Virus record (IMG/VR): IMGVR_UViG_3300031470_000033
Location: 14,222 to 78,221 of that record
Reading direction: 5' to 3' (one strand)
DNA from: a virus
DNA: 64,000 nucleotides
Shown here: one piece after another, positions 13,125 through 52,207 of the stretch
How positions within the stretch are numbered: position 1 is the stretch's first letter
How the letters are laid out: each line of letters starts with the position of its first letter
Notes under the pieces: generated by a model
The model's database searches: none
Seen by the model: the letters and a program-made list of their open reading frames with translations, nothing else
What the model was told of the DNA's origin: nothing
Made by a program: the position numbers and the translations under genes

Positions 13125-13970
13125 TTAGAAAGGCAACCGTAACTGCTCAAGTTCCGGAAGATGCGACTTACGCCGACCGTTTTGTCTTTCTCGCTGCGAC
13201 TGCGAGAGTTTGGCCCGATGCTCTGCCGTCAGGGGCCGGCCGGTTTTGGCGCGTATGGACGCAGCGCGACACGCCTCTGGCATGCACCCAGGGGTTGCTC
13301 GCGCCTTCGACGCTGCTGACAGTTTCGCACGTGTCTCAGGCGATATCGTGTGGGTTTCTGCCCATTTGCGTTTCGCCTGGGACATGCGCTCTCGGACCTC
13401 AGGCGTAAAGAAGCGTTCGCGTTCACCGTCACGAGCCCAACGTTTACGCGCGGCAGCGCCGAGTTTCTCGCGCAATTCAGGGGAGCGCACTCCTGCATCC
13501 AGCCATCTGCGCTGACCCTCATGTAGGCGTTTTATCTGTTCAGGAGACTGGGCTTTCCCTTTGTGTGCAAGAGAGAGCTTGCGACGTGTCTCCTCAGACT
13601 TCACATGACCCGTCGCGCCATGTCCACCGTTTGTAGCATTGGTCAAGGGAAGACCGCGCTGGCGCGCTTCCGCAATATAAGCAATCTCGGCTACATTGGC
13701 ATCGGGGAGAGGAACCCATAGGAGAACACGTAAGACGGCCCATTCGCCATGCGCCAGAAGCGAACGTATCCAGTCGTTCTTATGGGTCTTAGTGCAAAGG
13801 AGACGCGGGTTATGATGCTCGCGAATCCTGTACGGCGGGTTTACTGCCTGCCCAATGTACCGGATTTGTCCGTCAGGAGCACATAAGCAATAAATAGCCG
13901 TTTCCCCGGGGCAGGGTTGCGGATTGAGGTTAGCATCGAAGTCAAGGGGGTACACTAAGGGCAGAGACAT
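13125..13970 (-). CDS. GIY-YIG homing endonuclease with NUMOD3-like repeats
   Basis: AIYCL...RYIGQ...RIREH...E..YI...LTN catalytic set; repeated H.KSEETRRKLS / ISPETRAKLS / LTAEHRAKLS units. Confidence 0.85.
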   Translation of the reverse strand: MSLPLVYPLDFDANLNPQPCPGETAIYCLCAPDGQIRYIGQAVNPPYRIREHHNPRLLCTKTHKNDWIRSLLAHGEWAVLRVLLWVPLPDANVAEIAYIAEARQRGLPLTNATNGGHGATGHVKSEETRRKLSLAHKGKAQSPEQIKRLHEGQRRWLDAGVRSPELREKLGAAARKRWARDGERERFFTPEVRERMSQAKRKWAETHTISPETRAKLSAASKARATPGCMPEACRAASIRAKTGRPLTAEHRAKLSQSQRERQNGRRKSHLPELEQLRLPF

Positions 13971-17852: not shown

Positions 17853-19502
17853 CTAGTAGCGCGAGTCGGTTGTCCAGCCTGGCCCGTCCGCGTTGCCTGC
17901 GTACGGGTTAGCGCCGTACGGGTCGTTCATGCCATCGACGCCGTAGCGGTCGTCCACGGTGTGCGCTGAAACGCCGAGTTGGTCGGCAAGACTCACCAAC
18001 TCAGCAGCGGGCGGTGCAAACAAACGCGCCTGTTCACAGATAGCCGCGGCCATGACGATATCATCGTGATTATTGCCAGAGGCTTCGGTACTGCCATTCT
18101 CGTTGCGAATGTAGGTCCGCGCCTCACGGATAGTGGCGCGGTTACGCCATGGACGCAATTGGGTGAACGTTTCCCCCAGCGCGTCTATCAGAATAGCTTT
18201 TGTGCGGGAATTGGTCGGATAGCCATACCGCTCAGTCGCGCCCGTGGCGTCGTAATCCATGTGAGCGTAGAGATTGGGATAGTCTTGAATGCTCATCAAC
18301 GCCAGGAGCACAGCGGGGCCAGGTGTATTGCGCTCGACCGCAAGGTACGCGTTATTGTAGAACGCGCCCAGCGTAGCTAACTGCGTCGCAAACTCTTGGG
18401 GGGTGGCATGGTTGTGGAGTGTGGCGACATCCAGGCCCGTATGGTAGTCCATCACCACAGCGGCGCTATAGTCGCCCTTCAACAACCCTTCGGCTGTATC
18501 CGCGCCAATCACGTAGCGCCCCATCTCGGTCGGCTCGGCCCATATCTCAAGGTCGCCGTTCCACATGGTACGGATAGGGTCCGTGCATTGAGCGAGGATG
18601 GTATCAAGTGCCGCGATGTCAAAGCGTGGGCGGCCTGACAAGATAAACGCCTCTTCGGGCGTCGTGGGCAGCTCCTGTGCAATCTGCCAACTGGAGTAGC
18701 CACGCGTCGCCCCCTCATACCACGCCTGGTCCCGCCCCGGCCGCACATGCCACGGCAGGAACGTGGGGTGCATCCCCTCACCGTTAATGGCGAGGTCCCA
18801 TTGGCGTGCAAAGAAATTACCCGCGCCGTTCGCCGTAGACAGGGCAACAATCTTGTTACCGCCCGAGCGTGCGGCCGGTGACGCCGCTGTGTAGACAATA
18901 TCAGACCACATCATATGCGCCATCTCATCAAGGATGAGCACCTGCGCGTTGAAGGAACGGCCAGCGCCTGGCGAGGTCGGCTTGGGGATGATACGGCTGC
19001 GGTTCGTCAACTTGAGCGTGGACGTAATGTTCGGGTTAATGACCGGCACCTTCACGTCGTCGGGCAGGTAGTCGTAGGCGATGCGGCACTTTGACAGGAC
19101 TTCGTTCGCGGCGTCCTGATCCTTCGATAGAATGATGATGGTCCAGGCCGGGAACGTGATCGCGCAATACACGGCGATAGCCGCGACCGTCTCGGTCATG
19201 CCCAACTGCCGCGCCTTGAGGATGATGTTCTCGCGGTACAGCCAAAAGGAGCGGATGAACTCTTCCTGGTAGGGAAAGAGTTTGAAGGGAATAACGCCTT
19301 GACCACGGTCGCCGAGCAGTTTGCAGTACGCATTAATCCACGCGATGCAGTGGTCCGCGCGCTCGTCGGGCGTCAGTTCGGCTTTAGGCGTCGTCTGTGC
19401 GCGGCGGCGCATCTCCATGAGAGCTTCCGCTCGCAACTGCAAGGGGGTCTTCCCCAGCGGCGATGCGTGCGAGCTGGTCATCGGTGAGGGTGGATACATC
19501 AA
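17853..19502 (-). CDS. terL: Terminase large subunit
   Basis: IILKARQLGMT Walker A, LILDEMAH Walker B, STANG coupling motif, VIGADTAEG..GDYS and HDDIVMA nuclease motifs; exact start uncertain. Confidence 0.95.
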   Translation of the reverse strand: MMYPPSPMTSSHASPLGKTPLQLRAEALMEMRRRAQTTPKAELTPDERADHCIAWINAYCKLLGDRGQGVIPFKLFPYQEEFIRSFWLYRENIILKARQLGMTETVAAIAVYCAITFPAWTIIILSKDQDAANEVLSKCRIAYDYLPDDVKVPVINPNITSTLKLTNRSRIIPKPTSPGAGRSFNAQVLILDEMAHMMWSDIVYTAASPAARSGGNKIVALSTANGAGNFFARQWDLAINGEGMHPTFLPWHVRPGRDQAWYEGATRGYSSWQIAQELPTTPEEAFILSGRPRFDIAALDTILAQCTDPIRTMWNGDLEIWAEPTEMGRYVIGADTAEGLLKGDYSAAVVMDYHTGLDVATLHNHATPQEFATQLATLGAFYNNAYLAVERNTPGPAVLLALMSIQDYPNLYAHMDYDATGATERYGYPTNSRTKAILIDALGETFTQLRPWRNRATIREARTYIRNENGSTEASGNNHDDIVMAAAICEQARLFAPPAAELVSLADQLGVSAHTVDDRYGVDGMNDPYGANPYAGNADGPGWTTDSRY

Positions 19503-24098: not shown

Positions 24099-25685
24099 TC
24101 ATAGCCAGCCGGGCGCGAGGGCGCGGGCTTTGCCGCGCGCCCTGGTCGCCGCGGCCAGGGCCGGCGTCGCCATGATGTTCAGAGCGCGCCCGCCGCCACC
24201 GCCGACGCGCGCTACCGCTTCCGTCGTCAACTCCGGCGCCGCCAGCAACACAGCCACGAGCGCCACGCCCGCCGCCACGTGCACCAGCGGATTGTTGAAC
24301 ACGTCGTGCGGGTCCGTGCCCCCGGTCAACGCAAACACGAAAGCCACGCCCGCGCTTATCTCGATGACATACACCAGCGGCAGCGCCGTCAACGCCGTGA
24401 TGCTTTTGGCCCACCACGCGAAGACCGGACGTGTCGCCGGCAGCAGCACGAGCGGAATACACAACGGCGCGATGACGTAGAGCGCCACCAGGAGCACGAA
24501 TGTCCCGATACGTGTCAGCAGCATGATGCCGAACAGCACGACCATAATCACGAGCAGGACCAACGACACGAGGACGCCCAGCGTGAACTTTGCCAGGCTG
24601 GCTGTGTCGTTTTTGTCGATGGTGGTGAGCTTCGTCAAGGCGTCGTTGAGGGGCTTCAAGGCATCTTTGCCGATATAGGTGACGGCCTCCTGTATCCAGG
24701 TCCACACGCTATGCTCCACCGTCGATAGAATCGAGGCGTACCAATACACGAGGATGATCTCGCCCGCCAGGATCAGCACGGCACGCGCTGGCCTGAGCCG
24801 AAACAGGTCCACGACGTAGGCGACGACGCGCATGGACACCAGCACGCCCAACGCCGCTTTGCCGAACAGCATAAAGTAGCGCAGGAACGTGTTGAGCGGG
24901 CTGTACTGCGCGCCCGTCAGGTCGGGTTGATGCAGGATGGCCGGCACGATCCCGCCCGCGAGCGCCGTGCGCCCCCCCGCCTGGAGGTGATTCCACCACG
25001 ACAACGACCCCATCAGCAGCGACCCCATCAGCGCGCCCATGTCGATACACTGGTTGCCAAAGACGCAGAACACACCAGGCTTGTTGCCCGGCCCTGGCGG
25101 ATTCTGCACCTCCACTGCGCCCTGCGCGACTTTTGGCCCGAGGTCCTGGCCACCAAACACATCGCGTAGTGTGTGCGCCTCGATGACGTATGTGCCCGCT
25201 TTCGTCTGAGGAGGCAGGGCGCCCCGCCACGTCAACTCGCCGCGGGCGTCTGTCTTAGCCTTGTTTCCTGGGTCAGGCAGGGGTCCGTCAATCGCTTGGC
25301 CATCAGTCTTCGGGCCACCTGTCAGGTCCAACTCTAGCGACGCGTTCGGTGGCAGGTTGTGGCCAACCACGGTGATCGGTGGATTATTGTCTGCAGAGAA
25401 GGTCAATGGACTTGGCCGCACATCGAGTGTGCCGGCGTGGGGCCGCTCCGTTGCCGTCGCCACAGGCGTGTACGTCGGCCGCTCTGTTGCCGTCGCCTGC
25501 GGGGTGTACGTCGGCAACGGGGCCTGGGGCGTGTATGTCGGCAACGGGGCCAGCGTGGGCACGGGCGGGGCCGGGGCCGGGGAGGACGCTCCCCACGCGA
25601 GCGCGGGAAAAAGCACCACCACGAGGCCCGCGACTGCAAAGGTGAGGTGCGTCAGGCGGCGCGACAGCGGAGGACGCGTTCTCAT
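24099..25685 (-). CDS. VirB6/TrbL-like polytopic T4SS membrane protein with signal peptide, PTYTP repeats and an Ig-like domain
   Basis: Many hydrophobic segments in C-terminal half (LLTRIGTFVLLVALYVIAPLCI...FAWWAK); overlaps virB4 stop. Confidence 0.7.
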   Translation of the reverse strand: MRTRPPLSRRLTHLTFAVAGLVVVLFPALAWGASSPAPAPPVPTLAPLPTYTPQAPLPTYTPQATATERPTYTPVATATERPHAGTLDVRPSPLTFSADNNPPITVVGHNLPPNASLELDLTGGPKTDGQAIDGPLPDPGNKAKTDARGELTWRGALPPQTKAGTYVIEAHTLRDVFGGQDLGPKVAQGAVEVQNPPGPGNKPGVFCVFGNQCIDMGALMGSLLMGSLSWWNHLQAGGRTALAGGIVPAILHQPDLTGAQYSPLNTFLRYFMLFGKAALGVLVSMRVVAYVVDLFRLRPARAVLILAGEIILVYWYASILSTVEHSVWTWIQEAVTYIGKDALKPLNDALTKLTTIDKNDTASLAKFTLGVLVSLVLLVIMVVLFGIMLLTRIGTFVLLVALYVIAPLCIPLVLLPATRPVFAWWAKSITALTALPLVYVIEISAGVAFVFALTGGTDPHDVFNNPLVHVAAGVALVAVLLAAPELTTEAVARVGGGGGRALNIMATPALAAATRARGKARALAPGWL

Positions 25686-28600
25686 GACGCTTCCCGCATA
25701 GGGGTCGCGCCATCGGCAGGGGTCGCGGCGTCCGGGAGGTCGGGGAGGTCGGGGAGGTCGGTGGTCCAGCCACGCGCGGCGCGGCGGGCGCGGATCGCGG
25801 CCACCACGCCGGGCCAGAGTCCACCGTGCGCCGCCGTCCAGGCGTCGCGCGCGTCGCGCTCGGCGGGCTGTGTGGTGAACAGCGCCAGGTCCACGTCGGG
25901 GATCTCTAGATTAATTTTCCCGCGCTTGGCGATGCTGGAGCGTTGCGAACGCACGATCAGGTACGCCTGGGCGTAGCCGTCCGCGGACGCGTCAGGGGGG
26001 ACGACATGCAGGCCGGGCAGCTCGCCCGCCTCGCGCTCAGTAATCATGAGCGTCCGGGCCAGCCACGCGCTGCCGGCCTCCGCGCCCACCTGTTCGTTGC
26101 GCGTGTTACACACGATAATCACCGGGAGCGTGTTGAGCATGTCCAGGGCGCGCGCGGACGCCTTCATATGCGTGATGTACTGCGTGCCAAAGAACACGCG
26201 CCGGCGCTTGTGCCGGCTCTCCAGCGTGATCGTGCCGATGTGCTCGGCGGCCACGTCGATCACGTGGTGCCCCTCGTCGATCACCTCGACCTCCAGGGCC
26301 GGGCGACCATCGACGCGCCGGAGGTGCGCGCGCGCGGCCGTGCGCAGCTCCATGAGCCCCTCCATGATGCGGAAGGCGGCCACGGCGATTTTGCCTTTGC
26401 AGTGCCGCACATCGAGCACGACCATCGGGGCCAGCACGTCCGCCGTCATCTCCCGATCGGCCAGCGACGCGTAGATACCCTCACCAACGTACTCGGAGAA
26501 CCCGAGCACCATGTTCTCTAATTCAACCTTGCGCGCGGCCGGTACTTTCAGGCCCGTCAGGTGCGCGATCATCTCGCGCTCAAGCGGGTAGAGGTGCTCG
26601 TCGGGGCCGCGTTCGCGGGCGTACACGGCGCGGATCGCCGCCGCCAGCGTAGCGTATTGCCAACTCGTCAGCCGTTCGACCGACTCGCCCCGTCCAAAGA
26701 AGGTCTCGTGCAGGGTGAGCATCTCGGTCACGCGCGCCTCCGCGTTGAGCCGCGCGTAGAGCTGCCACGGGTTGAGCGCCGGCGGCGTCACCCCCCGCTC
26801 CTTATCCAGCAGCGTCAGGTAGGCGCCGCACCAGAGCGCGCACAGGGGCCGGTAGCTCCCCGAGCTGTCGAACACGACGGCCCCGTTGCCCTCGGCTAAC
26901 GACTGTTTCGTGAGCTCATTCATGATGACGGATTTGCCGCTGTTGGGAACGCCGAAGACGCCGACCTGCTGGGTGCCGATGTCCGTAGCGTCGAGGTTGA
27001 GGTAGACCGGCTCCTTGGTGTCCGACGTGACGCCCAGTGGCATCCCCGACGTATGACCAGGGTTGTCCGTGTGGTACGGGAACGTCGTGGCCACGGCCGC
27101 GGTCATGTCCCGCAGCAGATGCAGGTCCCCACCATCGGCGGTGGGCAGCGTGGCCCGGTACAGGTCGAGTTGGTCGAACCAGCCCTGCCCGATGCCGCAC
27201 TTGGCCCCGCGTAGCGCCGCCTTCGCCAGGGCAACGCGCCGGCGCAGCGCGGCGGGCGAATCGGCCAGGACCGTCACGATCAGCGAGATCTGGAAGATAT
27301 TGGTGTCGGGGTCCTCGGTCTCGTCCAGGGTGCGCCGGTGCTCCGCTTCAGCACGCGACAGGCGCACTTTCCGGCCGCCAGTGCGGTCCGCGCGGGTCTC
27401 GTTGAACGCCAGCGCCTTGCCGGCCAAGCGTTCGACACGCCCGGCCTCGCGGGTCTGGTCGAGGCCCGCAATAGTCAACGCGACGCGCGCGTGGGGCAGC
27501 GCCAGCAGGGGCTTGACCCAGCCGGGATAGGCCGTTTGCCGCAGGCGCGTGACGTACAAAGAGCGGGCGTAGCGCACCCCCCACGGTCCCGCGACCCGCA
27601 CGTAGCCCGCGTGTTCGTGCAGGTCGAGCGCCGTGGCGCGCGCGTGCAGCGGGTCCAGGCGCGGCGCGCCGGTCACCACCTGCCGCGGCTCCCGCCCCTG
27701 CGGGGGTGGCTCATCGTGCGTTGGCGCGGCGGCCGTGGACCGCACGAGCAGCGCGGCCATCTCGTCGGGGGACAGGCGTCGGTTGTCCAAGCCCATCGCC
27801 GTGTACAGCCGGCTCACGTCGGTGAGGTAATGCCCGAACTCGGTCCGGCGCTGCTCCTCCACCGCCGCCTTGTCGCGCTGGAAGCGGCTGGCCAGGACCT
27901 CCAGGCCCACGGGCCGGCGCGCTTCCAGCACCAGATAGGCGCGCCGGTCGGGGATGTCCGTCGCGTAGCGCCGGGTGTACCACTCGTTCTCCAGCGCGAG
28001 GAGCGCGGCGGTCGGGCCGTGGCCGGGCAGGCCGCGCTGGCGGAGGTTCAGGTCGGCCAGGGCCGCGTCCCCGCGCACGGCGCGGTTGTCGATGACGACG
28101 CGCGCGCGCTGGCTCGGCGCCAGCAGCGCGGCCGCGTCGGCGAAGAGCGCGAGGATGCGCGCCTGGTCCTCATCGTCACGTCCCGACAGGTTGAGGCCCT
28201 GCACGGCGCGCACCTCCACCAACCGGCCGTCCGGACGCGTGAGCAGCCCGTCCTCGGTGAGGGACAGGCCCGCGCTCGCGTCCGTGGAGCCCGACAGGAC
28301 GCGCCAGGAGGGCGCGGGGGCCGTCAGCGCGGCCCACACAGCCCCGAGGGTTACCAACCCGCGGCGCCCCGCCGCCGTGGCGACCGCCGCGCCCCAGGCC
28401 ACCCACGCGCCGGCCACCGGCGCCCAAGCGCGCCGCGCACCCCAGGCCGGCCGGGCGGGGCGGGGGGGGAGCGCCGGTGGCGCCCAGGACGCCAGGGGGT
28501 TAACGGGAGGGTGCTGGGCGTAGCGATGGCGCCGCAGCACGAACGCCTCAATCTGACGGAGGTAAGGCTCGCGCGCCGTGGTGGACCAGTAGGCCAGCGC

Positions 28601-28825
28601 CACGCCCAGCACGACGCCCGGTAGAGCAAAGTCAAGGGCATCCCCCAGGGCCGCGCCCAGGGCAACGAACGCGCCCACCACGCCGGCCAGCACGCAGAGG
28701 GCGACCCAGCCGAACTGATCCCAGGGCGCGCCTAGGTCCGCAAGGGGACCTGGCGCGCGGTCGATGTACTGCTTCGTGTGCACGCGCGCGTAGGGCGTCG
28801 CGTGTTCCTGTTCGGCTGTCGTCAT
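25682..28825 (-). CDS. virB4: VirB4-like T4SS ATPase with N-terminal PrgI/VirB3-like membrane segment
   Basis: 1047 aa; GVPNSGKS Walker A, VFDSSGSY, EVIDEGHH Walker B, SRHKR...GTQ; N-terminal TM hairpin. Confidence 0.85.
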   Translation of the reverse strand: MTTAEQEHATPYARVHTKQYIDRAPGPLADLGAPWDQFGWVALCVLAGVVGAFVALGAALGDALDFALPGVVLGVALAYWSTTAREPYLRQIEAFVLRRHRYAQHPPVNPLASWAPPALPPRPARPAWGARRAWAPVAGAWVAWGAAVATAAGRRGLVTLGAVWAALTAPAPSWRVLSGSTDASAGLSLTEDGLLTRPDGRLVEVRAVQGLNLSGRDDEDQARILALFADAAALLAPSQRARVVIDNRAVRGDAALADLNLRQRGLPGHGPTAALLALENEWYTRRYATDIPDRRAYLVLEARRPVGLEVLASRFQRDKAAVEEQRRTEFGHYLTDVSRLYTAMGLDNRRLSPDEMAALLVRSTAAAPTHDEPPPQGREPRQVVTGAPRLDPLHARATALDLHEHAGYVRVAGPWGVRYARSLYVTRLRQTAYPGWVKPLLALPHARVALTIAGLDQTREAGRVERLAGKALAFNETRADRTGGRKVRLSRAEAEHRRTLDETEDPDTNIFQISLIVTVLADSPAALRRRVALAKAALRGAKCGIGQGWFDQLDLYRATLPTADGGDLHLLRDMTAAVATTFPYHTDNPGHTSGMPLGVTSDTKEPVYLNLDATDIGTQQVGVFGVPNSGKSVIMNELTKQSLAEGNGAVVFDSSGSYRPLCALWCGAYLTLLDKERGVTPPALNPWQLYARLNAEARVTEMLTLHETFFGRGESVERLTSWQYATLAAAIRAVYARERGPDEHLYPLEREMIAHLTGLKVPAARKVELENMVLGFSEYVGEGIYASLADREMTADVLAPMVVLDVRHCKGKIAVAAFRIMEGLMELRTAARAHLRRVDGRPALEVEVIDEGHHVIDVAAEHIGTITLESRHKRRRVFFGTQYITHMKASARALDMLNTLPVIIVCNTRNEQVGAEAGSAWLARTLMITEREAGELPGLHVVPPDASADGYAQAYLIVRSQRSSIAKRGKINLEIPDVDLALFTTQPAERDARDAWTAAHGGLWPGVVAAIRARRAARGWTTDLPDLPDLPDAATPADGATPMREAS

Positions 28826-29245: not shown

Positions 29246-31681
29246 TCAGTCCGCGTCGTCGGTCCAGTCGGTCGCCGTATCCCATCCATCATCGATCTCA
29301 TCCCCCTTACCTCCATCACTCTCCACGTCCTCCTTTTCCTCCTTACCCTCACCGTCATCTTCCGCCACGGCGGACACCGTTTCCGTCGCGCCTCCGGCAG
29401 CGCGACGCAGAGGCGTGTCTAGACTTTTCGACACGCCCCCCGGTCCGCGCGTCGCCTCCTGTTCGCCTAGCAGCGTTGCCAGGGTACAGCGCGCCTTCGC
29501 CGCTGTTACCTCAGCCACCAGCGTCTTATCCGCGAACCAGAACGCAATATGAACTTGAATGGGGCTCCCACCGTTTCGGTGGATCAGGACCGTCCCCTTG
29601 CGCGACAGGGTGCGCACCGTAATGCGTTTGTCCTTGTACTGGCTGGCGTAATAGGCTTTGTCCTCCGCGTTGCTCCGATAGAACTGCGCCTGCATTGTGA
29701 CGTTCGGCCAGATGCGGTCGGCCTTGGCTTTGTACTCCGTGCGAATGTCCCGCCGCCCCTGCGTGGCGAAGTAAATGCCCACGTCTCGGAAGCCCATGGC
29801 GCTAAAGTGCATCTCCATCTCAGGCACCTCGCCCATGTTTGCGAACTCGTCGGCGATGATACGCACGGGCCGGGGCAACGGACGGTTGCCCTCACCCGCG
29901 ATGCGGTCGAACTCTCCCATCGCGCTCGTCAAAAACGTCACCAGGAACGGACGTACCGTCGCGTACGACTTCATGGGCACGGTCACGATGACGACGGTCG
30001 GCTCGGCCACGAACGTGGCCCAGCCCATCTCCATCCCATCCACGCTCTCACCCACCGTCGCACGCTGGTCTAGGGTCTCGGTTTGCAGGCGCTCCATGAC
30101 CTGCCGGTAGCCCGACATGATACCCTGCTTCTGCCGTGGTGACGTGGCCATCCCCGCCAGGGTTTGCACAATATCCGTCAGCGTCTCGTCCCCCGACGCC
30201 TCCACCCGCGCCTTGAGCGCCATTAGCCGCTCGTCCACTTCCTCCTCACTGCCGGCCTCCATCGCTCGATACCACCGCGCCACCGACAGCAGCGAGACCG
30301 CGCGCGGGTCGCGACCCGCCGCCTTTTCCTCGGCGCGCGTCATAATAACGCCCCCCGTCAAGAGGTCGATGGTCCCCTTCGTCCAGTAGTCTGACTCATC
30401 CTTGCCCGTCACCGACCGCACGAAAATAGAGGTGTACGCCTTGACCTGACCTGTACTTGGCATCAACGCCAGCGGATTGTAGCGCAGGCCACCCGCCCGC
30501 ATGGGGTCGTACACGCGCACGCGGTAGCCCCGTGCCCGCAGAATGCCGCCGAACTCCTCGGCCAGCTCTCCCTTCGGGTCGAACAGGATCAGCGACGCCC
30601 GCCGGGCGAGGGGGACCGTTGATTCGGCCAATATCCACGGCGCGAGGAATCCGGCCGTTTTGCCGGCGCGTGTCGCCGCCATGACGCCGCCATGCTGATT
30701 CTGCGCGGAGCGGGCTAGGTACACCATGCGCCCGCTCTGCACGTCGATCCCGAGCGGCCAGTCCCCCGGCTCTCCCGCCAGCCACCCCTCGTCCTCCAAC
30801 TCCTCTTCCGTGGCGAACGGCGGGTCCACCACCACACTCGCCTCTTCGATCGCCTTATCCACCTCCCTCTTGCGCAAGGCTTTGGCGACCTCATCGGCGG
30901 TCGTGACCGGTGCAATCTCCTCCTGAACCCGCTTCTTGATTTCCGCTTTCCTGACCGCCTCGCGGGCCTCGTATTCCTCCAGCGCCGCCGCCCCCTGTAG
31001 CGCGCCCCCGCTCCCCGTTCCTCCTGTAGTAGCGCCGGCCGTGAACGTTTCACGCACGACCGCCATCCTGACGGCGCGGGCGACGGTATCCTTCTCCACT
31101 CCCTCGCGCACCAAATCGGCCAGCGTCGTCGTGTCAAACTCAGCCTTTGCCATCTCGGCGATCTTCGCCTTGCGCGCCTTCTCGCGTGCCTCGTGCATCT
31201 CCAGCGCCCGCGCCTCAACCGACCGCCCCGCCTTGCCCTCCATCCTGGCCCGTTCAGCCGCAACCTTGACGGCCTCGTGCTCGGCCGCAAGGTCCTCACG
31301 CGCCCTCTGCTTCGGCGACTTCCGCGCACGCTCCTCCTTGCGTTGCGCTACCTGCTCGGCCTGCGCTAGTTGCGCGTCGATCTTCGAGACGCGCGACGCG
31401 CGCACGACGCCCCCCGCGACCACGCCGAGGATGATGAGCCCGCCAAGGCCCCCACCTGCCGCCGCCAGCTCAACCGTGACATGCGGGACTGCTGGATCGG
31501 CCCAGCGCGCCTGACCCCACGCCATGAGGGCGTCCGCGTCCAGCCGCAGCAGCGCCGCGTTCAGGGCCGCGTCCAACGCGGGGACGGACGAGCCGGCGTG
31601 CGCGATCACGGGCCGCAGCACCACGCCTGCCGCCGCACACAGACTGGCCCCCAGACCCAGCGCTGTCAGCGTCCCTTTCAT
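29246..31681 (-). CDS. virD4: Type IV coupling protein (VirD4/TraG family)
   Basis: N-terminal TM segments; AATRAGKT Walker A, LFDPKGEL, YNPL, YW, IIADEFANMG Walker B, ATQ. Confidence 0.9.
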   Translation of the reverse strand: MKGTLTALGLGASLCAAAGVVLRPVIAHAGSSVPALDAALNAALLRLDADALMAWGQARWADPAVPHVTVELAAAGGGLGGLIILGVVAGGVVRASRVSKIDAQLAQAEQVAQRKEERARKSPKQRAREDLAAEHEAVKVAAERARMEGKAGRSVEARALEMHEAREKARKAKIAEMAKAEFDTTTLADLVREGVEKDTVARAVRMAVVRETFTAGATTGGTGSGGALQGAAALEEYEAREAVRKAEIKKRVQEEIAPVTTADEVAKALRKREVDKAIEEASVVVDPPFATEEELEDEGWLAGEPGDWPLGIDVQSGRMVYLARSAQNQHGGVMAATRAGKTAGFLAPWILAESTVPLARRASLILFDPKGELAEEFGGILRARGYRVRVYDPMRAGGLRYNPLALMPSTGQVKAYTSIFVRSVTGKDESDYWTKGTIDLLTGGVIMTRAEEKAAGRDPRAVSLLSVARWYRAMEAGSEEEVDERLMALKARVEASGDETLTDIVQTLAGMATSPRQKQGIMSGYRQVMERLQTETLDQRATVGESVDGMEMGWATFVAEPTVVIVTVPMKSYATVRPFLVTFLTSAMGEFDRIAGEGNRPLPRPVRIIADEFANMGEVPEMEMHFSAMGFRDVGIYFATQGRRDIRTEYKAKADRIWPNVTMQAQFYRSNAEDKAYYASQYKDKRITVRTLSRKGTVLIHRNGGSPIQVHIAFWFADKTLVAEVTAAKARCTLATLLGEQEATRGPGGVSKSLDTPLRRAAGGATETVSAVAEDDGEGKEEKEDVESDGGKGDEIDDGWDTATDWTDDAD

Positions 31682-33259: not shown

Positions 33260-33850
33260 CTACCGCGCCCCCACAGGCGCCGACACCGCAGGCAACCCCA
33301 CCACGGCGCGTATGCCGGTGAACAGCGCATCGTGGGCCGCAGGGACGTAGGCCACCAGCACGAGGGCGATACAGGCTATCGTGATGAGGCCAGCGACCAG
33401 TGTGGCGACCAAGCTATCTGAGCGGAAGTGAAACCAGCGAGGGGTGATATGCCAGTGCGTCCACAGTCCGGGAATCAGAGGCACGCCATCTTTGGTCATG
33501 GCGTCTTCAGCGAGGTGCAGCAGCCCACCAGCCCACCAGGCACCCACCAGGGGCGCGAGCCAGGGAGCGTTCGTCCCCGACGTGGCGTAGACGCTCAGGG
33601 CGGCTAGGGCCACCCACAGCGGCACAAGATGCGTCAGCCCGCGATGGCCGAATGACACCTGGCGCACCAGCCACGAAAGCCAGGGCACGCGCGATGATAA
33701 CAAAGAATGCTCGGTATCGAGGTCGGGAGTCAGACCGGCAATCCCCGCCACAATGGCGCAGGGCGCAAGCATCCAGGGAGACGCCCCTACCAGAGGCACA
33801 GAGGCCGCGCCTAACGCGGTCGCTGATAGACCGTGCGGAACTCCGTTCAT
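33260..33850 (-). CDS. Membrane metal-dependent hydrolase (YdjM-like)
   Basis: H near N-terminus, PDLD, GHRGLTH, HLAEDAMTKDGVP motifs; hydrophobic. Confidence 0.8.
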   Translation of the reverse strand: MNGVPHGLSATALGAASVPLVGASPWMLAPCAIVAGIAGLTPDLDTEHSLLSSRVPWLSWLVRQVSFGHRGLTHLVPLWVALAALSVYATSGTNAPWLAPLVGAWWAGGLLHLAEDAMTKDGVPLIPGLWTHWHITPRWFHFRSDSLVATLVAGLITIACIALVLVAYVPAAHDALFTGIRAVVGLPAVSAPVGAR

Positions 33851-33956
33851 TCCCTACCCCTTTCTATGCGACAATCGCTGCCGCTTCATGGCATCAGTGT
33901 AGCATAATGTTCCCAACGTATACCAACTATAATACGAGAGAAACGGCAACGGTAGC

Positions 33957-34247
33957 ATGTCAGGGGGTGAATATGTGAGAATAGGTGCAGAAACACTGCG
34001 TCGGCGATTAGTGAGGAGAGTTCTGTCAGTGCCACGTAAGGCGCGCGAGGGCTTTGAATGGGTATCGTCCTATGTCCCCATTCAGGTGTATCGCACGCTC
34101 ATTGACATTGCTCGCGCCGAAGGGCGCACCAAATCGGTCATGGCATGGCGGCTGATGGCAGAGGCGATGAAGGCTAGGGGACACGATGTCGATGCGGACT
34201 TCCCCGACCCCACACGCGGCGCACCCCCGTCAGCGCCACCGAACTAA
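33957..34247 (+). CDS. Small ribbon-helix-helix regulator (divergent)
   Basis: WVSSYVPIQVYRTLIDIARAEGRTKSVMAWRLMAEAM; true start may be GTG near 34030. Confidence 0.55.
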   Translation: MSGGEYVRIGAETLRRRLVRRVLSVPRKAREGFEWVSSYVPIQVYRTLIDIARAEGRTKSVMAWRLMAEAMKARGHDVDADFPDPTRGAPPSAPPN

Positions 34248-34266
34248 CCTGTCCATACTGAAACAG

Positions 34267-34299
34267 AGAGGGGTGGTAGCTATCGGCTACCACCCCTCT
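34267..34299. terminator. Bidirectional terminator between convergent genes
   Basis: AGAGGGGTGGTAGC-tatcg-GCTACCACCCCTCT with T-runs on both sides. Confidence 0.7.
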
Positions 34300-34325
34300 T
34301 TCACGGCCTTAATATTGGAGGCGCG

Positions 34326-34778
34326 TCAGATATGGGGTTGACCATGCATCGCCATCCACTCCGCGATGTAGTCTTCCATGGTTTCTTCCATCACCTCCTA
34401 CATCTTGCGATCTTCCTGAGCCGCCACCCGGCGCATGCGCCTCACCAAACTAGCGCGGACAGCAAAGCCATGGGGTTTGCGCTCTGGGCCTTCGACCGGG
34501 ACATACTGTTTGTTGGTCAGAGATGCCCCTTCGGCTAGATAGCGCCGAATGTACTCTTTCTCAACCGTGCTAACTGAAGCCCTATCCACCGTAGCGAGGA
34601 TATGCATGTGCGGGCGTTTACCCTCTGAGCGGATGGCAGATATCCATCCAGCGTTAAGGCCGTCATGGTTGTTGATGTGGCTAGTTAACCGCATAGCTGG
34701 CTGTGTTGTTTGCCCGACATATCGCACCACGCCCAGGTGGTCCATCAGGGCGTAAACGTACACCGCATCATCCATCAC
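34326..34778 (-). pseudogene. GIY-YIG nuclease-RHH fusion whose RHH is interrupted by an in-frame TAG at 34398-34400
   Basis: VYVYAL..RYVGQT..RLTSH..EKEYI..LTN; C-terminus ERKPHGFAVRASLVRRMRRVAAQEDRKM*EVMEETMEDY matches the ParG-like gene, which has TAC (Tyr) at the stop. Confidence 0.7.
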
Positions 34779-34822
34779 GGCTTACCCCGTATGCGACGAC
34801 AAACTCGCGTAGCGCCTGCACG

Positions 34823-35542
34823 TCAACCCTCCTCACGTTGCAGGTATTGAGTCATAGCCTCGTCCATGACTTCGTAGAGCTTGCGCTTCTTTTTGATAGC
34901 GACGATCTTCAGCCGGTCTACTAAATCGGGGGACACTGCGATCCCGCGCGCACCTGAAACAGGCGTGGACAAGGGCGCCTCCTGTTTTTCTTGCTGCGCC
35001 AGATATAACTCAACCGCCTCTTCCAGCGCATCGTACAGTTTGAAATGCCGGCGCACAGCTACGATCCGCAGTCGTTGGCGCAAATCTTCTCGCAACTGCA
35101 TCGCCGCCACCGAACGAGTCAGTGCCGTCAGGGGTGGTTTTGGAATAGACCGCTGCATATCTAGCATTTCAGCCGCCGTGATGGTTATGCCGCTAAAGCC
35201 TCCCCACATGAGCGTGTAATAGGGATTGTATTGTGAGTTGGTCAGTGGTTCCCCTTGCGTGACGTATCGGACGATATACCTCTTCTCGCAGGCATGCGCT
35301 TCATCCCGAGGCACAAGGTCAAGCACGCGCATTAATGGGGGCAAACCGTGTTCTTTCAACCCGTTGATCCACGCCATCTTAATCGGCGTGCCAACAGGGG
35401 TCTGCCAATGAGCAGCAAGGCGGTTCGTCATCGACTCTTCACTCGCCTCCTCAACCTGGCCGATATAGCAGGTAGCACCACAGGGGTCTTCAAGCCCATA
35501 GATAACGGCCGTCCTACTCGGAATATCCAATGAAACGTCCAT
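34823..35542 (-). CDS. GIY-YIG nuclease fused to two tandem RHH domains
   Basis: VIYGL..CYIGQ..RLAAH..EKRYI..LTN; then LREDLRQRLRIVAVRRHFKLYDALEEA and VSPDLVDRLKIVAIKKKRKLYEVMDEA. Confidence 0.8.
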   Translation of the reverse strand: MDVSLDIPSRTAVIYGLEDPCGATCYIGQVEEASEESMTNRLAAHWQTPVGTPIKMAWINGLKEHGLPPLMRVLDLVPRDEAHACEKRYIVRYVTQGEPLTNSQYNPYYTLMWGGFSGITITAAEMLDMQRSIPKPPLTALTRSVAAMQLREDLRQRLRIVAVRRHFKLYDALEEAVELYLAQQEKQEAPLSTPVSGARGIAVSPDLVDRLKIVAIKKKRKLYEVMDEAMTQYLQREEG

Positions 35543-36051
35543 TATGCCCGCACCTCGTGCTTGCCGATGAAATCGCGTAGCGCCTCCTCCATCGCTTCAT
35601 AAAGCGGTCGCTGCTGCTTCGCAGCAATTGACTTGACCCCAGCCACCAAATCAAGGTCGAGAGCATACCCCCGATTACGACGCCTAATATCGTCGTAATC
35701 ATCAAATTCAGGGTCAACGAAAAACATGCCAGCAAGAGGATTATGCATTCTATTCGTCAGGAGAACACCAGCAGCCGCACAATCCTCTATGTACCGCTTC
35801 TCTTCGGCATCGGCATCCAACTTGGAAACCGTCGTCAATATACGTACTCCCGGCATTAAGTCGTCATGCATGAGTCTTCGCAAGACCGACCGCTGCGCTC
35901 TACTGGCAGACGTTAACCGCATGTGCTGTATCAATCGCGCATCAGGGTCAAGACTCTGACCGATGTAGAAAATGCAGTTTTTGTTCAGCGGGTCTGTTAA
36001 ACCGTAAATATAAACAACGGCCGCGTCACACGTTGCCATGACTAATCTCAT
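35542..36051 (-). CDS. GIY-YIG nuclease fused to one RHH domain
   Basis: YIYGL..FYIGQS..RLIQH..EKRYI..LTN; C-terminal GYALDLDLVAGVKSIAAKQQRPLYEAMEEALRDF. Confidence 0.8.
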   Translation of the reverse strand: MRLVMATCDAAVVYIYGLTDPLNKNCIFYIGQSLDPDARLIQHMRLTSASRAQRSVLRRLMHDDLMPGVRILTTVSKLDADAEEKRYIEDCAAAGVLLTNRMHNPLAGMFFVDPEFDDYDDIRRRNRGYALDLDLVAGVKSIAAKQQRPLYEAMEEALRDFIGKHEVRA

Positions 36052-36343
36052 TACGGGCGAGGAAATCCTCCATGGCTTCTTCCATCACCTCGTACATCTT
36101 GCGATCTTTTTGAGCCGCCACCCGGCGCATGCGCTTCACCAAGCCAACGCGTACTGCAAAACCATGAGGCTTACGCTCACCGTCATCCACCTTAGCGGGA
36201 GTTGCCCCGGATGCGGGCTTGCTATCCTGCATATCTGCACTTATAGCGCCCTCGGTCGATAGCCGCACGCCACGACCGCGCCGTATCTCTGGCAGGGGGG
36301 CGGGCGCGTTGAGGAGGGCGTCCAGGTCTTTCTTAGACGGCAT
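36026..36343 (-). CDS. ParG-like (type Ib) centromere-binding RHH protein
   Basis: Flexible N-terminal tail then KPHGFAVRVGLVKRMRRVAAQKDRKMYEVMEEAMEDFL; ATG 36343 overlaps parA stop. Confidence 0.7.
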   Translation of the reverse strand: MPSKKDLDALLNAPAPLPEIRRGRGVRLSTEGAISADMQDSKPASGATPAKVDDGERKPHGFAVRVGLVKRMRRVAAQKDRKMYEVMEEAMEDFLARNEISHGNV

Positions 36344-37112
36344 AGCGTACCCCCACTTCCGCAGCAAGCGCGGTGTAGGCGGACGCCCCCATGCTCGTCG
36401 GCGCATACCGAGCAATGGGCAATCCGGCCAACGGCGCTTCAGCCAGGCTGATGTTGGTCGGAATGACCGTATTGAACACGAGGTCGCCGTAGCGATCCCG
36501 CACCTTACGCTCAATAGCGTCGGCTAGCTTCGTCCGTGTTGCCAGCGTGCACACCACACCGCCGACATGGAGCGGCGGATTCAAGTCGCGCACCAGCGCG
36601 ATGGTCGCTTCGAGTTGGGGCAACGCCCTGAATGAATAAGCATGCAGTTGGAACGGCACCAGCGCCGCATCGGCCGCGGCGAGCGCATTGAGCGTGAACA
36701 AGCCCAACGACGGCGGCGGGTCAATCAGGATGTAATCGTATCGTGCCCGCACGTCAACGAGCGCCTTGCGCAGCAAGAGTTCGCGCCCGACCTTGCCTGC
36801 GAGTTCCATTTCGGCGCCCGCCAATGCAAGCGTTGAAGGGATCAAGTCTAGATGTCCCGTTGTATTCAATCCCCCAGCGTTGGGCACAATGGCAAAGTCC
36901 GCGCCCCGCTCGGGGTTCAGCAAAACTTCATAAATGCTGAACTGCAAGGCGTCGGGATCAAGACCTAACCCCTGCGTAAGATTGGCTTGAGGGTCTAGGT
37001 CGATCAGCAACACACGCGCTCCCCTATCCGCGAGCGCCACACCCACGGAGAGCGTCGTCGTCGTCTTACCAACACCGCCCTTCTGCATCGTTGAAGCTAG
37101 AATATACCCCAT
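36333..37112 (-). CDS. parA: ParA/Soj partition ATPase (no N-terminal HTH, type Ib)
   Basis: QKGGVGKTTT, LIDLDPQANLT, YILIDPPPSLG, VIPTNISLAEAP. Confidence 0.95.
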   Translation of the reverse strand: MGYILASTMQKGGVGKTTTTLSVGVALADRGARVLLIDLDPQANLTQGLGLDPDALQFSIYEVLLNPERGADFAIVPNAGGLNTTGHLDLIPSTLALAGAEMELAGKVGRELLLRKALVDVRARYDYILIDPPPSLGLFTLNALAAADAALVPFQLHAYSFRALPQLEATIALVRDLNPPLHVGGVVCTLATRTKLADAIERKVRDRYGDLVFNTVIPTNISLAEAPLAGLPIARYAPTSMGASAYTALAAEVGVRYAV

Positions 37113-37150
37113 ACCGCCCCTCCTGTCTGCTCATACTTTTGCATAAATAC

Positions 37151-37175
37151 ATTATAGCATATGTGCAATATAGCA
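37151..37175 (-). promoter_or_regulatory. Extended -10 promoter (TGCTATAAT) for the par block with a TGCTATA direct repeat; candidate operator/parS
   Basis: Plus-strand ATTATAGCA at 37151-37159; TATAGCA again at 37169-37175; AT-rich; GGAGG RBS before parA. Confidence 0.55.
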
Positions 37176-37226
37176 GTTTCATGACGCGCAAGACGGCGCG
37201 TTTGCGCGTAAAGGGTAATACAAACA

Positions 37227-37266
37227 CAAGGGGGCCGGCGCTACAGTGGTAGCGCCGGCCCCCTTG
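37227..37266 (-). terminator. Intrinsic terminator separating the phage early operon from the par/conjugation block
   Basis: 18-bp perfect inverted repeat CAAGGGGGCCGGCGCTAC/GTAGCGCCGGCCCCCTTG followed by TGTTTGTATT on the minus strand. Confidence 0.7.
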
Positions 37267-37324
37267 CGCGCGAATGCCATGGATCGCCAAGTGTATAAAG
37301 TGTCACCATGACACCAACCGTGTG

Positions 37325-50122: not shown

Positions 50123-50979
50123 TCACAAGACGCGCAGATAACGGCCCGCCCACGGCGGCGATGATAGTCCGTGACCTCGCCGCCGACCGGCTGTCCGCCC
50201 TCCCAGCGCGCCATACGGTGCGTCAGACCATCCTCACGGATACTGCGGCCACGCAGCACGAAGCAGGCGTACACATCGCGGTCTATGAAGCGGTCGGCCA
50301 TGCGCGCCCCGAGCGCGTCCAGCGTTTCGTTCGTCCCCACAACTGTCGGCAGACGCCGCTCATAGCGGCCATCGAGAATCTGTAGCATCTTCTGGCCGAC
50401 ATACTCGGTGGCGTGATGCGCGCCCAGGTCATCAACGAACAGGATGGGCGCGGCGACAAAAGCCCGGACGCGCGCCGCAACACTATCGTCCTTGATGCCT
50501 TCCTTGAGGTGGTCGGCCAGCGCCGCCGCGTGGACGTAGCGCGGCTGCACGCGTGGGTCTTGGTGGTCGCACAGCGCCAGCGCCGCGCCAAGCATCAGGC
50601 GGCTCTTGCCCGTGCCGAAGTCGCCCAGCAACAGGAGGCACGGCGCGAGAGTGGCTGCAAACGTCACCGACGCCGCGTAGGCTGCGACCTGCCCTCCATT
50701 CGGGCTCAGGGCAGCCAGAGAGCGAGCCACGGGGACGTACCAGCCATCCGCGTCGGGGTCGCCGGGAACGGAATCGAGCGAAGACAGCACGAGTTCGTGC
50801 CGGCGCGCGCGGCCGGCGCCACACGCGCAGGGATACCAACGCCCATCACGGGCCAGCACGCGCCCACGGCCCGCGCAGAGCGGACAGACAGCGGGAGTGT
50901 CAAGAGTGTCAGGACGCATGGGGGAACTCGGTGATGTGCTCATCGTTGTACACGTTCGGATTGGCGACGCGCGCCCCAT
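50050..50979 (-). CDS. DnaC/IstB-like helicase loader ATPase
   Basis: CPLC..C.C zinc motif, GDFGTGKS Walker A, LFVDDLGA Walker B, ILDGRY...GTN. Confidence 0.85.
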   Translation of the reverse strand: MGRASPIRTCTTMSTSPSSPMRPDTLDTPAVCPLCAGRGRVLARDGRWYPCACGAGRARRHELVLSSLDSVPGDPDADGWYVPVARSLAALSPNGGQVAAYAASVTFAATLAPCLLLLGDFGTGKSRLMLGAALALCDHQDPRVQPRYVHAAALADHLKEGIKDDSVAARVRAFVAAPILFVDDLGAHHATEYVGQKMLQILDGRYERRLPTVVGTNETLDALGARMADRFIDRDVYACFVLRGRSIREDGLTHRMARWEGGQPVGGEVTDYHRRRGRAVICASCDCRPCRCVTYGLTPPPAVMAGDRP

Positions 50980-52207
50980 TGCCCATCTCGACCAGGCCAG
51001 TCCGCCCGCACATGACTGTATCGTGCGGGTGCCCCATCGCCATGCGGCAACTGGTCCGGCCAGGCAGTCCTACCGCGCAGTAGTCCTCGATGGTGAAGGT
51101 TTCCGCACGCCAGCCATCCGTGCGACCCATGCCGCTATGGGTGTTGCGTGCGCTCGCCCCCCCTGATGACGCGGAGGGACGCGAGGCGAGGCATCCGTCG
51201 CGGAACGCCTTGAGCTTGCCGGGACACGCCGACAGCTTGAACGGGGCGCGGTTGGGATACGTCCCGTTGCTCCACCGCTCGTCGTAGACCGCCTGCATCA
51301 GGGCAAGGGCTTCATCGAGCGAGGCGCAGGCCCGCGCTATGCGCTCGGCGTCAGCATTGGCGTACTTCTGGCGCGACGCAGGCAGAGTGTCCCATGGCTC
51401 AGCCGTGTAGCGCTCGAAGTAGCGCGCCTTGATAGCCTCGCGCCGCGCATACACCTTGGGGTCAGCCTGTTGGAGCGATGGCTTGGATGGCGTGCGCGGC
51501 GCCTTCGGGCTGTTGCCAGTATCAGGCTTGACGGCGGAAGCACCCCCCGCCTCATGCTTACCCTCGGCATCGTGAAGAACGTCAGCAAAATTAGGCAGGG
51601 GGAGCGGCGTCGGCACGTGAGCGCCGTCCCACTGTGTAGGTGGGTGTTGTGAACGTGGGTGTTGTGTGGGTGTTGTGAACGTGGGTGTTGTTAGTTCACT
51701 GAGCGAACTAGGGGGGGTTCGCTCAGTGAACTGGCTACTAGTTCGCTCAGTGAACGCCGGGGGTTCGCTCAGTGAACTAGTAACGTCGGCGTTAGGGGTT
51801 CGCTCAGTGAACGCCTCCTGCTCATTGTTCACGAGATACAAGCGTTCGTTGTCTTGATCGCGCGCGAGTGGCTTGAACTCATACACTGTCGCGACCGTCT
51901 TGACGCCCTTGACCTTGGGGGAGATAGTACGACCGACGAGGCCGCGCTTCTCCAACTCGGTCAGTGCTGCTGATAACGTCGCGTGTGATTTAATGCCACA
52001 TCCGTGATTGACATAGGAACCATCCGAACGCTTCATGCCGTCGGCAAACTGCGTGAAGCTGATGCTATCTGTGGTCTTGCGGAACCCGTATGTATGTCGC
52101 ACGATGTAACACAGCACCTTCCACTCGGCGTGTGATACGTGGGCCATCCAGTAGTCGAGCAGTTCATCGGGGAATTGCGTCGTGTTCGGGTAAAAGGCGT
52201 TCATCAT
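50909..52207 (-). CDS. Phage replication initiator (replisome organizer, N-terminal winged HTH)
   Basis: TQFPDELLD..LS.AEWKVLCYIVRHTYGFRK..DSISFTQF motif; internal iterons; upstream of DnaC/DnaB. Confidence 0.85.
   Translation of the reverse strand: MMNAFYPNTTQFPDELLDYWMAHVSHAEWKVLCYIVRHTYGFRKTTDSISFTQFADGMKRSDGSYVNHGCGIKSHATLSAALTELEKRGLVGRTISPKVKGVKTVATVYEFKPLARDQDNERLYLVNNEQEAFTERTPNADVTSSLSEPPAFTERTSSQFTERTPPSSLSELTTPTFTTPTQHPRSQHPPTQWDGAHVPTPLPLPNFADVLHDAEGKHEAGGASAVKPDTGNSPKAPRTPSKPSLQQADPKVYARREAIKARYFERYTAEPWDTLPASRQKYANADAERIARACASLDEALALMQAVYDERWSNGTYPNRAPFKLSACPGKLKAFRDGCLASRPSASSGGASARNTHSGMGRTDGWRAETFTIEDYCAVGLPGRTSCRMAMGHPHDTVMCGRTGLVEMGNGARVANPNVYNDEHITEFPHAS
51694..51812. repeat. 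Iteron cluster (probable replication origin)
   Basis: GTTCGCTCAGTGAAC at 51717, 51741, 51763, 51798 plus an inverted copy at 51694; adjacent GGGTGTTGTG repeats. Confidence 0.8.

Follow-up and report, generated by a model that had tools for sequence, protein, structure and literature searches.

Partition genes followed by GIY-YIG nucleases with ribbon-helix-helix heads form a recombination mosaic in a phage-plasmid-like element

Introduction

Free-standing phage GIY-YIG homing endonucleases of the I-TevI/I-BmoI type, like the Seg enzymes of T4, combine an N-terminal catalytic domain of ~95 residues (GIY, YIG, R, H, E and N) with a linker and a separate C-terminal DNA-binding module, and their genes lie between conserved phage genes with a presence and type that vary among sister phages. 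A presumed route by which homing endonucleases acquire new targets is the exchange of their DNA-binding modules. To our knowledge, clear natural cases of such swapping are few, and Odn of the phage ICP1 is the best known. In Odn (Gp88), a chimeric nuclease, a T5orf172 domain (GIY-YIG superfamily) is fused to a DNA-binding domain copied from the RepA of its rival and 42% identical to PLE RepA_N; the enzyme cuts the rival's origin (PMC8263062). A further set of related systems is formed by the type Ib partition (par) loci, such as ParF/ParG of TP228 and delta/omega of pSM19035, in which a gene for a small Walker-type ParA overlaps a small gene for a ribbon-helix-helix (RHH) protein. Here, we analyzed a locus that touches on all of these systems. 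It is located in a stretch of 64,000 nucleotides (the window) covering positions 14,222 to 78,221 of the IMG/VR record IMGVR_UViG_3300031470_000033, an uncultured virus of 81.6 kb (linear, completeness estimate 73%), and consists of a parA gene, a parG-like gene and three genes, termed GIY1, GIY2 and GIY3, that encode GIY-YIG nucleases carrying RHH domains.

The three nucleases share with the free-standing homing endonucleases the catalytic domain, the linker followed by a C-terminal module, and the variable placement between conserved genes, and the mosaic flanks of the locus, with tracts 100% identical to other genotypes, are as expected of break repair in homing. In contrast to the "beads on a string" of NUMOD, zinc-finger or helix-turn-helix modules in known homing endonucleases, the module here is an RHH, which is an obligate dimer and a copy of a centromere-binding protein. 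Unlike usual homing genes, these genes are translationally coupled to a par operon, and their homing and cleavage are putative. The closest experimental precedent is Odn; both Odn and GIY3 pair a nuclease with a head copied from a rival's maintenance protein. The head of GIY3, however, would derive from a partition protein instead of a replication initiator, and it is C-terminal and dimeric; moreover, Odn serves in a contest between a phage and a satellite, whereas the contestants here would be sister phage-plasmids with alternative par cassettes. In type Ib loci as in the window, the ParG protein has an N-terminal tail that is flexible and contains Arg, and its RHH is C-terminal, but the window protein falls below the Pfam ParG model and nuclease genes are appended to its operon.

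We propose that the three genes are homing-type GIY-YIG nucleases that captured the centromere-binding heads of rivals, travel with par cassettes and probably cut the par regions of rivals, and that GIY3 was disabled upon meeting the matching ParG. The probability of this reading was estimated at about 0.55.

Composition of the operon

The five genes are all located on the minus strand and are bounded by two hairpins (Table 1). ParA matched the Pfam families AAA_31 (3.5e-49) and CbiA as well as a ParA-like PHROG (2e-56). The product of the parG-like gene, ParG_W, has a disordered, low-complexity N-terminal tail containing IRRGRGVRLS and a C-terminal RHH (encoded at ~36187-36038). A small Walker-type ParA with an overlapping downstream gene for a small RHH protein, recognized by profile and fold, is the layout of type Ib partition. 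ParG_W had no match to Pfam ParG (PF09274) at E ≤ 0.1 and reached no Pfam RHH model at threshold, the only match being 56B_RHH with 15.8-16.7 bits (cut-off 27.2). Because Pfam ParG was not reached, "ParG-like" denotes an analogy by position, size and fold. The RHH profile weakly matched structures of the omega repressor (2bnw, E 0.023; 1irq, E 0.037).

The catalytic set reported for the three nucleases in the first-pass annotation (Y, YxG, R, E and N) was retained in all of them, together with the His. In GIY2, the corresponding residues Y15, Y26, G28, R41, H45, E86 and N102 fell into nearly invariant columns among 150 relatives. The Pfam GIY-YIG model scored GIY3 at 22.8 bits (cut-off 22.6) and GIY1 at 17.3 bits, just under the cut-off; GIY2 had no Pfam GIY-YIG match and was recognized by a profile built from its relatives. 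The AlphaFold model of GIY2 had a mean predicted local distance difference test score (pLDDT) of 81, with values >90 over residues 10-110 and the last RHH. Foldseek related this model to the GIY-YIG domains of UvrC and I-TevI (1yd6, 1ycz and 1ln0; probability 0.97-0.99, template modeling score normalized to the target 0.54-0.68), with E-values that were weak (≥0.016) because the model has several domains, and to the RHH domains of CopA and PutA (probability 0.99). By motif set (GIY1-3) and by fold (GIY2), the nucleases belong to the GIY-YIG superfamily.

All RHH domains of the locus belong to one narrow family with the helix-2 signature R-x-LYE-x-MEEA. The nucleases lack the N-terminal IRRGxGxRLS tail common to all ParG types, to which a ParA-directed role is ascribed from the known ParG of TP228. 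Since this tail is missing, the nucleases could occupy ParG sites but not act on ParA, and the segregation role that had been considered for them found no support. GIY1 showed 20 synonymous and 11 nonsynonymous substitutions, with just 2 of the latter in its first 143 codons, which points to purifying selection on the gene, catalytic domain included. Three alleles of GIY1 residue 144 (~35608-35610), a family-conserved Arg before RHH helix 2, were seen among near-identical genes, namely R in the window, Y in contig L009 and C in L176 and L177.

Table 1. Positions of the operon, its parts and neighboring features within the window.
Feature	Position	Strand	Description
Terminator hairpin of preceding genes	37225-37268	-	18-20 bp stem, then T run; upstream limit of par unit
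Hybrid promoter/operator region	37113-37224	-	37224 to ~37185 L-type; from ~37180 down W-type
Inverted repeat in promoter	37184-37209		ACGCGCAA(N10)TTGCGCGT
parA	36333-37112	-	259 aa; small Walker-type partition ATPase; W type
parG-like gene	36026-36343	-	105 aa; W type; 11-nt overlap with parA
GIY1	35542-36039	-	165 aa; 14-nt overlap with parG; GIY-YIG ~36021-35740, C-terminal RHH ~35697-35548
GIY2	34823-35542	-	239 aa; TAATG overlap with GIY1; GIY-YIG ~35518-35225
RHH domains of GIY2	RHHa ~35128-34982, RHHb ~34966-34829	-	
GIY3	34398-34775	-	125 aa; intact GIY-YIG, RHH strand and helix 1
GIY3 remainder	34326-34397	-	RHH helix 2 and tail; in frame for 23 more codons to TGA 34328-34326
RHH-coding repeat	34362-34484 (GIY3) vs 36056-36178 (parG)	-	123 nt, 19 differences, 84.6% identity
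Hairpin after GIY3	34267-34299	-	14-bp perfect stem; downstream limit of unit, facing a convergent small plus-strand open reading frame
L-identical tract	33262-34948		RHHb, GIY3, intergenic region and ydjM; equal to L008, L173 and L175 at all but base 34398
Small open reading frame	33957-34247	+	weak RHH_5 match
ydjM	33850-33260		
VirD4/TraG-like coupling protein gene	29246-31681	-	T4SS-DNA_transf 5e-32, TraG-D_C
TraG/VirB4-like P-loop protein gene	25682-28825	-	1047 aa
Large terminase gene	17853-19502		
Portal gene	14050-16131		
Free-standing GIY-YIG gene	13125-13970	-	NUMOD3 5.4e-11; directly downstream of portal gene
O-like initiator gene	50909-52207		
Iteron-like tandem repeats	51640-51777		units 11/15/26 nt and 22 nt; within O-like initiator gene

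The operon as a mosaic of two par cassettes

Comparison with related contigs revealed two allelic cassettes in a common phage backbone. The W cassette (ParA of 259 aa, ParG_W of 105 aa and GIY1) was found in L009, L176 and L177, and the L cassette (ParA of 261 aa with 73% amino acid identity to that of the window, ParG_L of 110 aa and an intact GIY3 of 149 aa) in L008, L173, L174 and L175; L174 and L176 have the same upstream genes and different cassettes. The window combines both types. From ~37450 to 37185 it was 100% identical to L174, and it switches to the W type at ~37180 inside the promoter, at the shared CTGCTATA (left junction ~37178-37185). Nucleotide identity to L009 was then 97.3% for parA, 95.6% for parG and 91.7% for GIY1. 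The following ~600 bp (35553-34956), encoding the nuclease domain and RHHa of GIY2, were unique to the window and occurred in no other contig. From 34948 on, RHHb of GIY2 was base for base the 3' end of an L-type parG, and the L-type sequence continued through GIY3 into ydjM (Table 1).

These identities show the window to be a recent recombinant, in which the W cassette (parA, parG_W and GIY1) and GIY2 were placed between L-type flanks. RHHb of GIY2 appears to be a remnant of the displaced parG_L that was fused in frame, because the L-identical tract begins at the RHH-coding end of parG_L. The second RHH of GIY2 is accordingly the 3' end of another phage's parG and no designed duplication of its first RHH. 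The idea of a single evolved, extended partition operon of five genes was not supported: sister contigs have one nuclease each, and the array is a recent mosaic with one gene disabled and one RHH left over. Mobile nuclease genes stacked by recent recombination describe it better. A single-chain dimer of RHHa and RHHb was also considered and found no support, as the two domains were unpaired in the AlphaFold monomer (RHHa pLDDT 57-77, no strand predicted).

In the comparison with L009 (7697-8014), the parG gene of the window showed 3 synonymous and 9 nonsynonymous differences, mostly in the disordered tail, and parA showed 19 and 2, respectively.

GIY3 matches the resident ParG and is interrupted

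The RHH of GIY3 was 73-78% identical to that of ParG_W and 40-42% identical to that of ParG_L, its native neighbor in four contigs. The DNA repeat between parG and GIY3 noticed previously was recovered at 123 nt, and the recognition strand ERKPHGFAVR was identical in the two proteins. The differences within the repeat, which had been called mostly synonymous, affected 18 codons, of which 10 were changed synonymously, 7 nonsynonymously and 1 to a nonsense codon; the ten codons of this strand had 6 synonymous and 0 nonsynonymous changes. An in-frame TAG is located at 34400-34398 inside RHH helix 2 of GIY3, where parG has TAC (Tyr). The reported order of the five genes was confirmed, with GIY3 starting after a 47-nt gap and cut by the TAG; its proposed end at 34326 is reached only by reading through this codon. 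Recoding of TAG was ruled out, as it is a normal stop that ends 4 of the 27 long genes of the window virus. In sister contigs GIY3 is intact, with 149 aa.

Over the 1,686 bp shared with L-type contigs, the TAC to TAG change in GIY3 (base 34398) was the sole difference. With substitutions assumed to be uniform, a single random change in this tract would create a nonsense codon in GIY3 with a probability of 51/5,058 = 0.010. An exact look-up of the truncated GIY3 product gave no record. An 85-aa truncated GIY3 (P0153) was dropped as a candidate for a second, independent inactivation: the genes of its contig L189 are split throughout, and P0153 is uninformative because such splitting suggests error-prone sequencing.

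The window was the only place where a nuclease stood beside a ParG with the same recognition strand, and that nuclease is the broken GIY3. By comparison, the RHH of GIY1 was 38-40% identical to that of the resident ParG_W, and the nuclease RHH of the distant contig L170 was 38% identical to the adjoining RHH protein. A DNA-binding head copied from a rival and not from the carrier, as in Odn, was found for GIY3 only. Structure prediction of a heterodimer between the RHH domains of ParG_W and GIY3, as recommended in the first-pass annotation, gave a score of 0.54 against 0.00 for the best of three controls, with runs agreeing in at least 94% of contacts and a partner pLDDT of at least 71. In calibration, 51 of 78 solved complexes passed the mark for this score, as did 2 of 108 mismatched pairs; passes at 0.60 or lower, however, came from only 5 of the 78 solved complexes and from all 4 passing mismatches (of 180). 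The prediction lends weak support to the heterodimer, and its pass may reflect likeness alone, RHH dimers having been solved many times.

The nearest relative of RHHa of GIY2 (42% identity) was a ParG-like protein of 256 aa (L172, 74-844). It shares the N-terminal tail and has an extended repeat region rich in Ser, Pro and Glu as well as two RHHs in tandem.

A variable slot after parG

An exhaustive profile search yielded 14,262 GIY-YIG matches at E up to 0.001, among them close relatives of GIY1 and GIY3, together with ParG-like proteins that matched via the RHH part of the profile. When GIY2, GIY1 and the RHH of ParG were used in word-index homolog searches, just the window's own proteins and GIY3 were recovered; the relatives emerged from the profile search only. 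Searches of curated plasmid and phage DNA and proteins gave nothing useful, and a Streptomyces match from them was an unrelated larger protein. A GIY-YIG match was present in 143 of the 150 nearest relatives, whose added domains comprised NUMOD3 (16), HTH_17 (10), AP2, several RHH families, ParG (2) and HTH_ParB (1). About a dozen unrelated GIY-YIG+RHH proteins were included in these 150, so the architecture, which had not been recognized as described, is recurrent and fits the modular pattern usual for homing endonucleases. GIY-YIG+RHH proteins were also encoded away from par genes, in L179, L180 and L181/L182.

The genetic context analysis showed one nuclease gene each after parG in eight sister contigs, the window alone having three. 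In L171, a 302-aa GIY-YIG protein that lacks an RHH is encoded after an L-like cassette; in the distant L170, a diverged parA precedes a 79-aa RHH gene, a GIY-YIG+RHH gene and then an IS4 transposase. No nuclease followed parG in 8 loci of the same ParA-ParG family from metagenome-assembled genomes (MAGs) of Chloroflexota and other uncultured bacteria, and a same-strand GIY-YIG+RHH gene after parA was found in 0 of 160 generic ParA loci. The position after parG is polymorphic in both presence and replacement of the nuclease. Its content differs across related cassettes, and such a variable slot is what typifies homing endonuclease genes of the free-standing kind.

Another phage group, unrelated to this one, has a GIY-YIG+RHH gene (P0028; L181 3825-4468, L182 2673-3316) that overlaps the 59-aa NikA-like RHH gene directly upstream. 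Copying of the neighbor as a general rule for GIY-YIG+RHH proteins was rejected, as the RHH of P0028 is unlike that of the adjacent NikA-like protein (E 2.8).

The hybrid promoter and candidate binding sites

The W-type part of the promoter region contains a TGnTATAAT-like -10 element, ATGC/GCAT boxes and a ribosome-binding site. Upstream of this W-type -10 element and operator lies the inverted repeat formed by ACGCGCAA and TTGCGCGT, which is a feature of L-type promoters. It was rejected as the ParG_W operator, since L-type promoters have it and the W-type promoters of L009, L176 and L177 do not. It could instead be a ParG_L-type site that is still readable by RHHb of GIY2. The inverted-repeat 8-mer showed no enrichment in the window, with 9 occurrences against an expectation of 5.6. 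As candidate boxes, W promoters have ATGC/GCAT repeats surrounding their -10 element, and L promoters have GCGC repeats.

Proposed mechanism and its implications

In the mechanism proposed here, the RHH would be an interchangeable DNA-binding module taken from ParG-type centromere-binding proteins, and each nuclease would dimerize via this module, giving two catalytic heads. The enzyme would bind the sites of a rival ParG type, located in the rival par operator or centromere, and cut nearby. When two related phage-plasmids meet in one cell, the cut would destroy the rival or convert its par region by break repair, and a cassette of par genes plus nuclease would therefore function both as a drive and as a weapon of incompatibility. 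If the RHH of a nuclease matched the resident ParG, the enzyme would turn on the genome that encodes it or poison ParG through mixed dimers, and we propose that GIY3 was knocked out beside parG_W because such a nuclease would cause self-harm. RHHb of GIY2 would be a leftover of parG_L in either case, used or not. A more far-reaching version remains tentative: a "centromere-directed" gene drive in which the nuclease of every par cassette bears the rival's head, cuts the rival par site and thereby replaces or eliminates the rival. The RHH-coding DNA common to the nuclease gene and the rival parG would then double as a recombination arm, and the TAG of GIY3 would be an escape from self-targeting caught in the act after two cassettes were joined.

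The first-pass annotation had proposed, among other options, nucleases addressed to parS-like sites and directed against related elements. The narrow RHH family, the ParG_W strand in GIY3 and the broken GIY3 beside ParG_W are consistent with this weapon function, which is the best-supported one, the targeting itself being our inference. Overall, the earlier observation was partly confirmed and its interpretation partly supported.

The locus and its sister contigs provide a population snapshot, with a module borrowed from a centromere-binding protein, cassettes exchanged between near-identical genomes, and one nuclease that a single-base substitution appears to have inactivated when its borrowed head came to match the resident partition protein. 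Should the proposed targeting hold, par loci would be battlegrounds where nucleases enforce which par type survives, beyond passive incompatibility, and the modular turnover of par cassettes in phage-plasmids would gain a testable mechanism. An RHH-guided, probably dimeric GIY-YIG nuclease would also join the known designs of site-specific nucleases.

Weighing the proposal against alternatives

Several points weigh against our proposal. The RHH of GIY1 and RHHa of GIY2 were ~40% identical to every ParG seen, the only close ParG-type match being that of GIY3, and rival targets of these two domains are hypothetical. The boxes of ParG_W and ParG_L could not be defined with confidence and are candidates only, and searches found no centromere-like array and no cluster or tandem array of ATGC-type boxes outside the promoter. 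The binding and cleavage sites and the activity of GIY1-3 are predictions. The selection argument leans on a single mutation (p ~0.01), and a broken copy would likewise result if a homing gene simply decayed once it was fixed. Every par cassette in this phage group carries a nuclease, which could indicate a built-in function and not a selfish rider. In addition, the direction of the recombination events cannot be read from these sequences, and all compared sequences are metagenomic contigs out of few related studies.

Some of these points would also suit ordinary selfish homing genes, whose RHH reads a conserved sequence near the slot (e.g. in parG or ydjM), whose likeness to ParG came from local recombination and whose TAG is homing-cycle decay. 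The family is modular with many alternative DNA-binding modules, the combination with RHH also occurs away from par genes (L179, L180 and L181/L182), and a close ParG match exists for GIY3 only; the nuclease at the slot varies in presence and type, and a second, free-standing version with NUMOD3 resides in the structural module. We nevertheless consider this alternative rather unlikely. The recognition strand of GIY3 has stayed identical to that of ParG_W despite six synonymous changes, and an RHH that shares its reading strand with ParG_W should recognize the boxes that ParG_W does. Furthermore, the order parA-RHH-GIY-RHH recurs in the distant L170, and the lone change in 1,686 bp is a nonsense mutation in the RHH. 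Coupled translation with parA-parG in one operon and the nuclease in every cassette of the group would also be compatible with an addiction or partition accessory, that is, toxins or nickases restrained by ParG via mixed RHH dimers or a shared operator and serving post-segregational killing or segregation. RHH proteins are common as antitoxins, and the in-silico heterodimer of ParG_W and GIY3 points weakly in the same direction. Such an arrangement is improbable, however, in view of the ~40% RHH identity between the resident ParG and the co-resident intact nucleases, which is poor for mixed dimers, and of the fact that the sole alike pair is the one with the broken nuclease. Nuclease types are also freely swapped between cassettes, the same ParA-ParG family occurs without a nuclease in MAG contigs, and the nucleases lack the ParA-facing N-terminal tail.

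Two further explanations were considered. A contig assembled as a chimera of coexisting W and L strains, with the TAG as a consensus error, might be suspected, given that the W and L relatives come from the same or related metagenome projects and that its flanks match L-type contigs at 100% identity. However, L178, a contig of 80,205 bp from an independent ENA assembly, agrees with the window at every base over 6,720 bp, a stretch that covers both junctions and the TAG. The two types share only ~10 bp at the left junction and nothing at the right, too little for a mis-join in a k-mer graph, and the 600 bp of GIY2 are found in no other contig. With two assemblies in agreement and next to no sequence common to both types at the junctions, a chimeric assembly is very unlikely. 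Still harder to credit are nuclease-dead regulators that merely occupy par operators as I-TevI-like autorepressors. I-TevI does double as an autorepressor and the RHH is a classic repressor fold, but the catalytic residues are intact in all three genes and their orthologs, and the catalytic domain of GIY1 is under purifying selection.

Genomic setting and neighboring genes

The window encodes a large terminase, a portal protein, a DnaB-like helicase and an O-like initiator. With its phage genes, conjugation-type ATPases and partition operon, the element looks like a phage-plasmid. The conjugation-type ATPases (a VirD4/TraG-like coupling protein and a TraG/VirB4-like P-loop protein, Table 1) lie on one contig with the phage terminase and portal genes, an arrangement conserved in sister contigs. 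The ParA/ParG family of the window was also present on contigs of Chloroflexota MAGs (Caldilineaceae, Anaerolineae and Chloroheliaceae), which suggests Chloroflexota as the host phylum. Iteron-like tandem repeats within the O-like initiator gene are probably the origin.

The free-standing GIY-YIG gene at 13125 carries NUMOD3, as had been reported, and its nuclease domain was 37% identical to that of GIY2. At the downstream end of the par unit, the small plus-strand open reading frame is divergent from ydjM and convergent with GIY3. The L-type contigs keep its counterpart as a 72-aa call, so that a further RHH regulator adjoins the cassette. Upstream of the par cassette, a TnpB gene (OrfB_IS605 / Cas12f1-like_TNB) was inserted in L174 (3737-4978), L176 (3852-5093) and L171 (1323-2480), and the window did not align with its sister contigs at these insertions.

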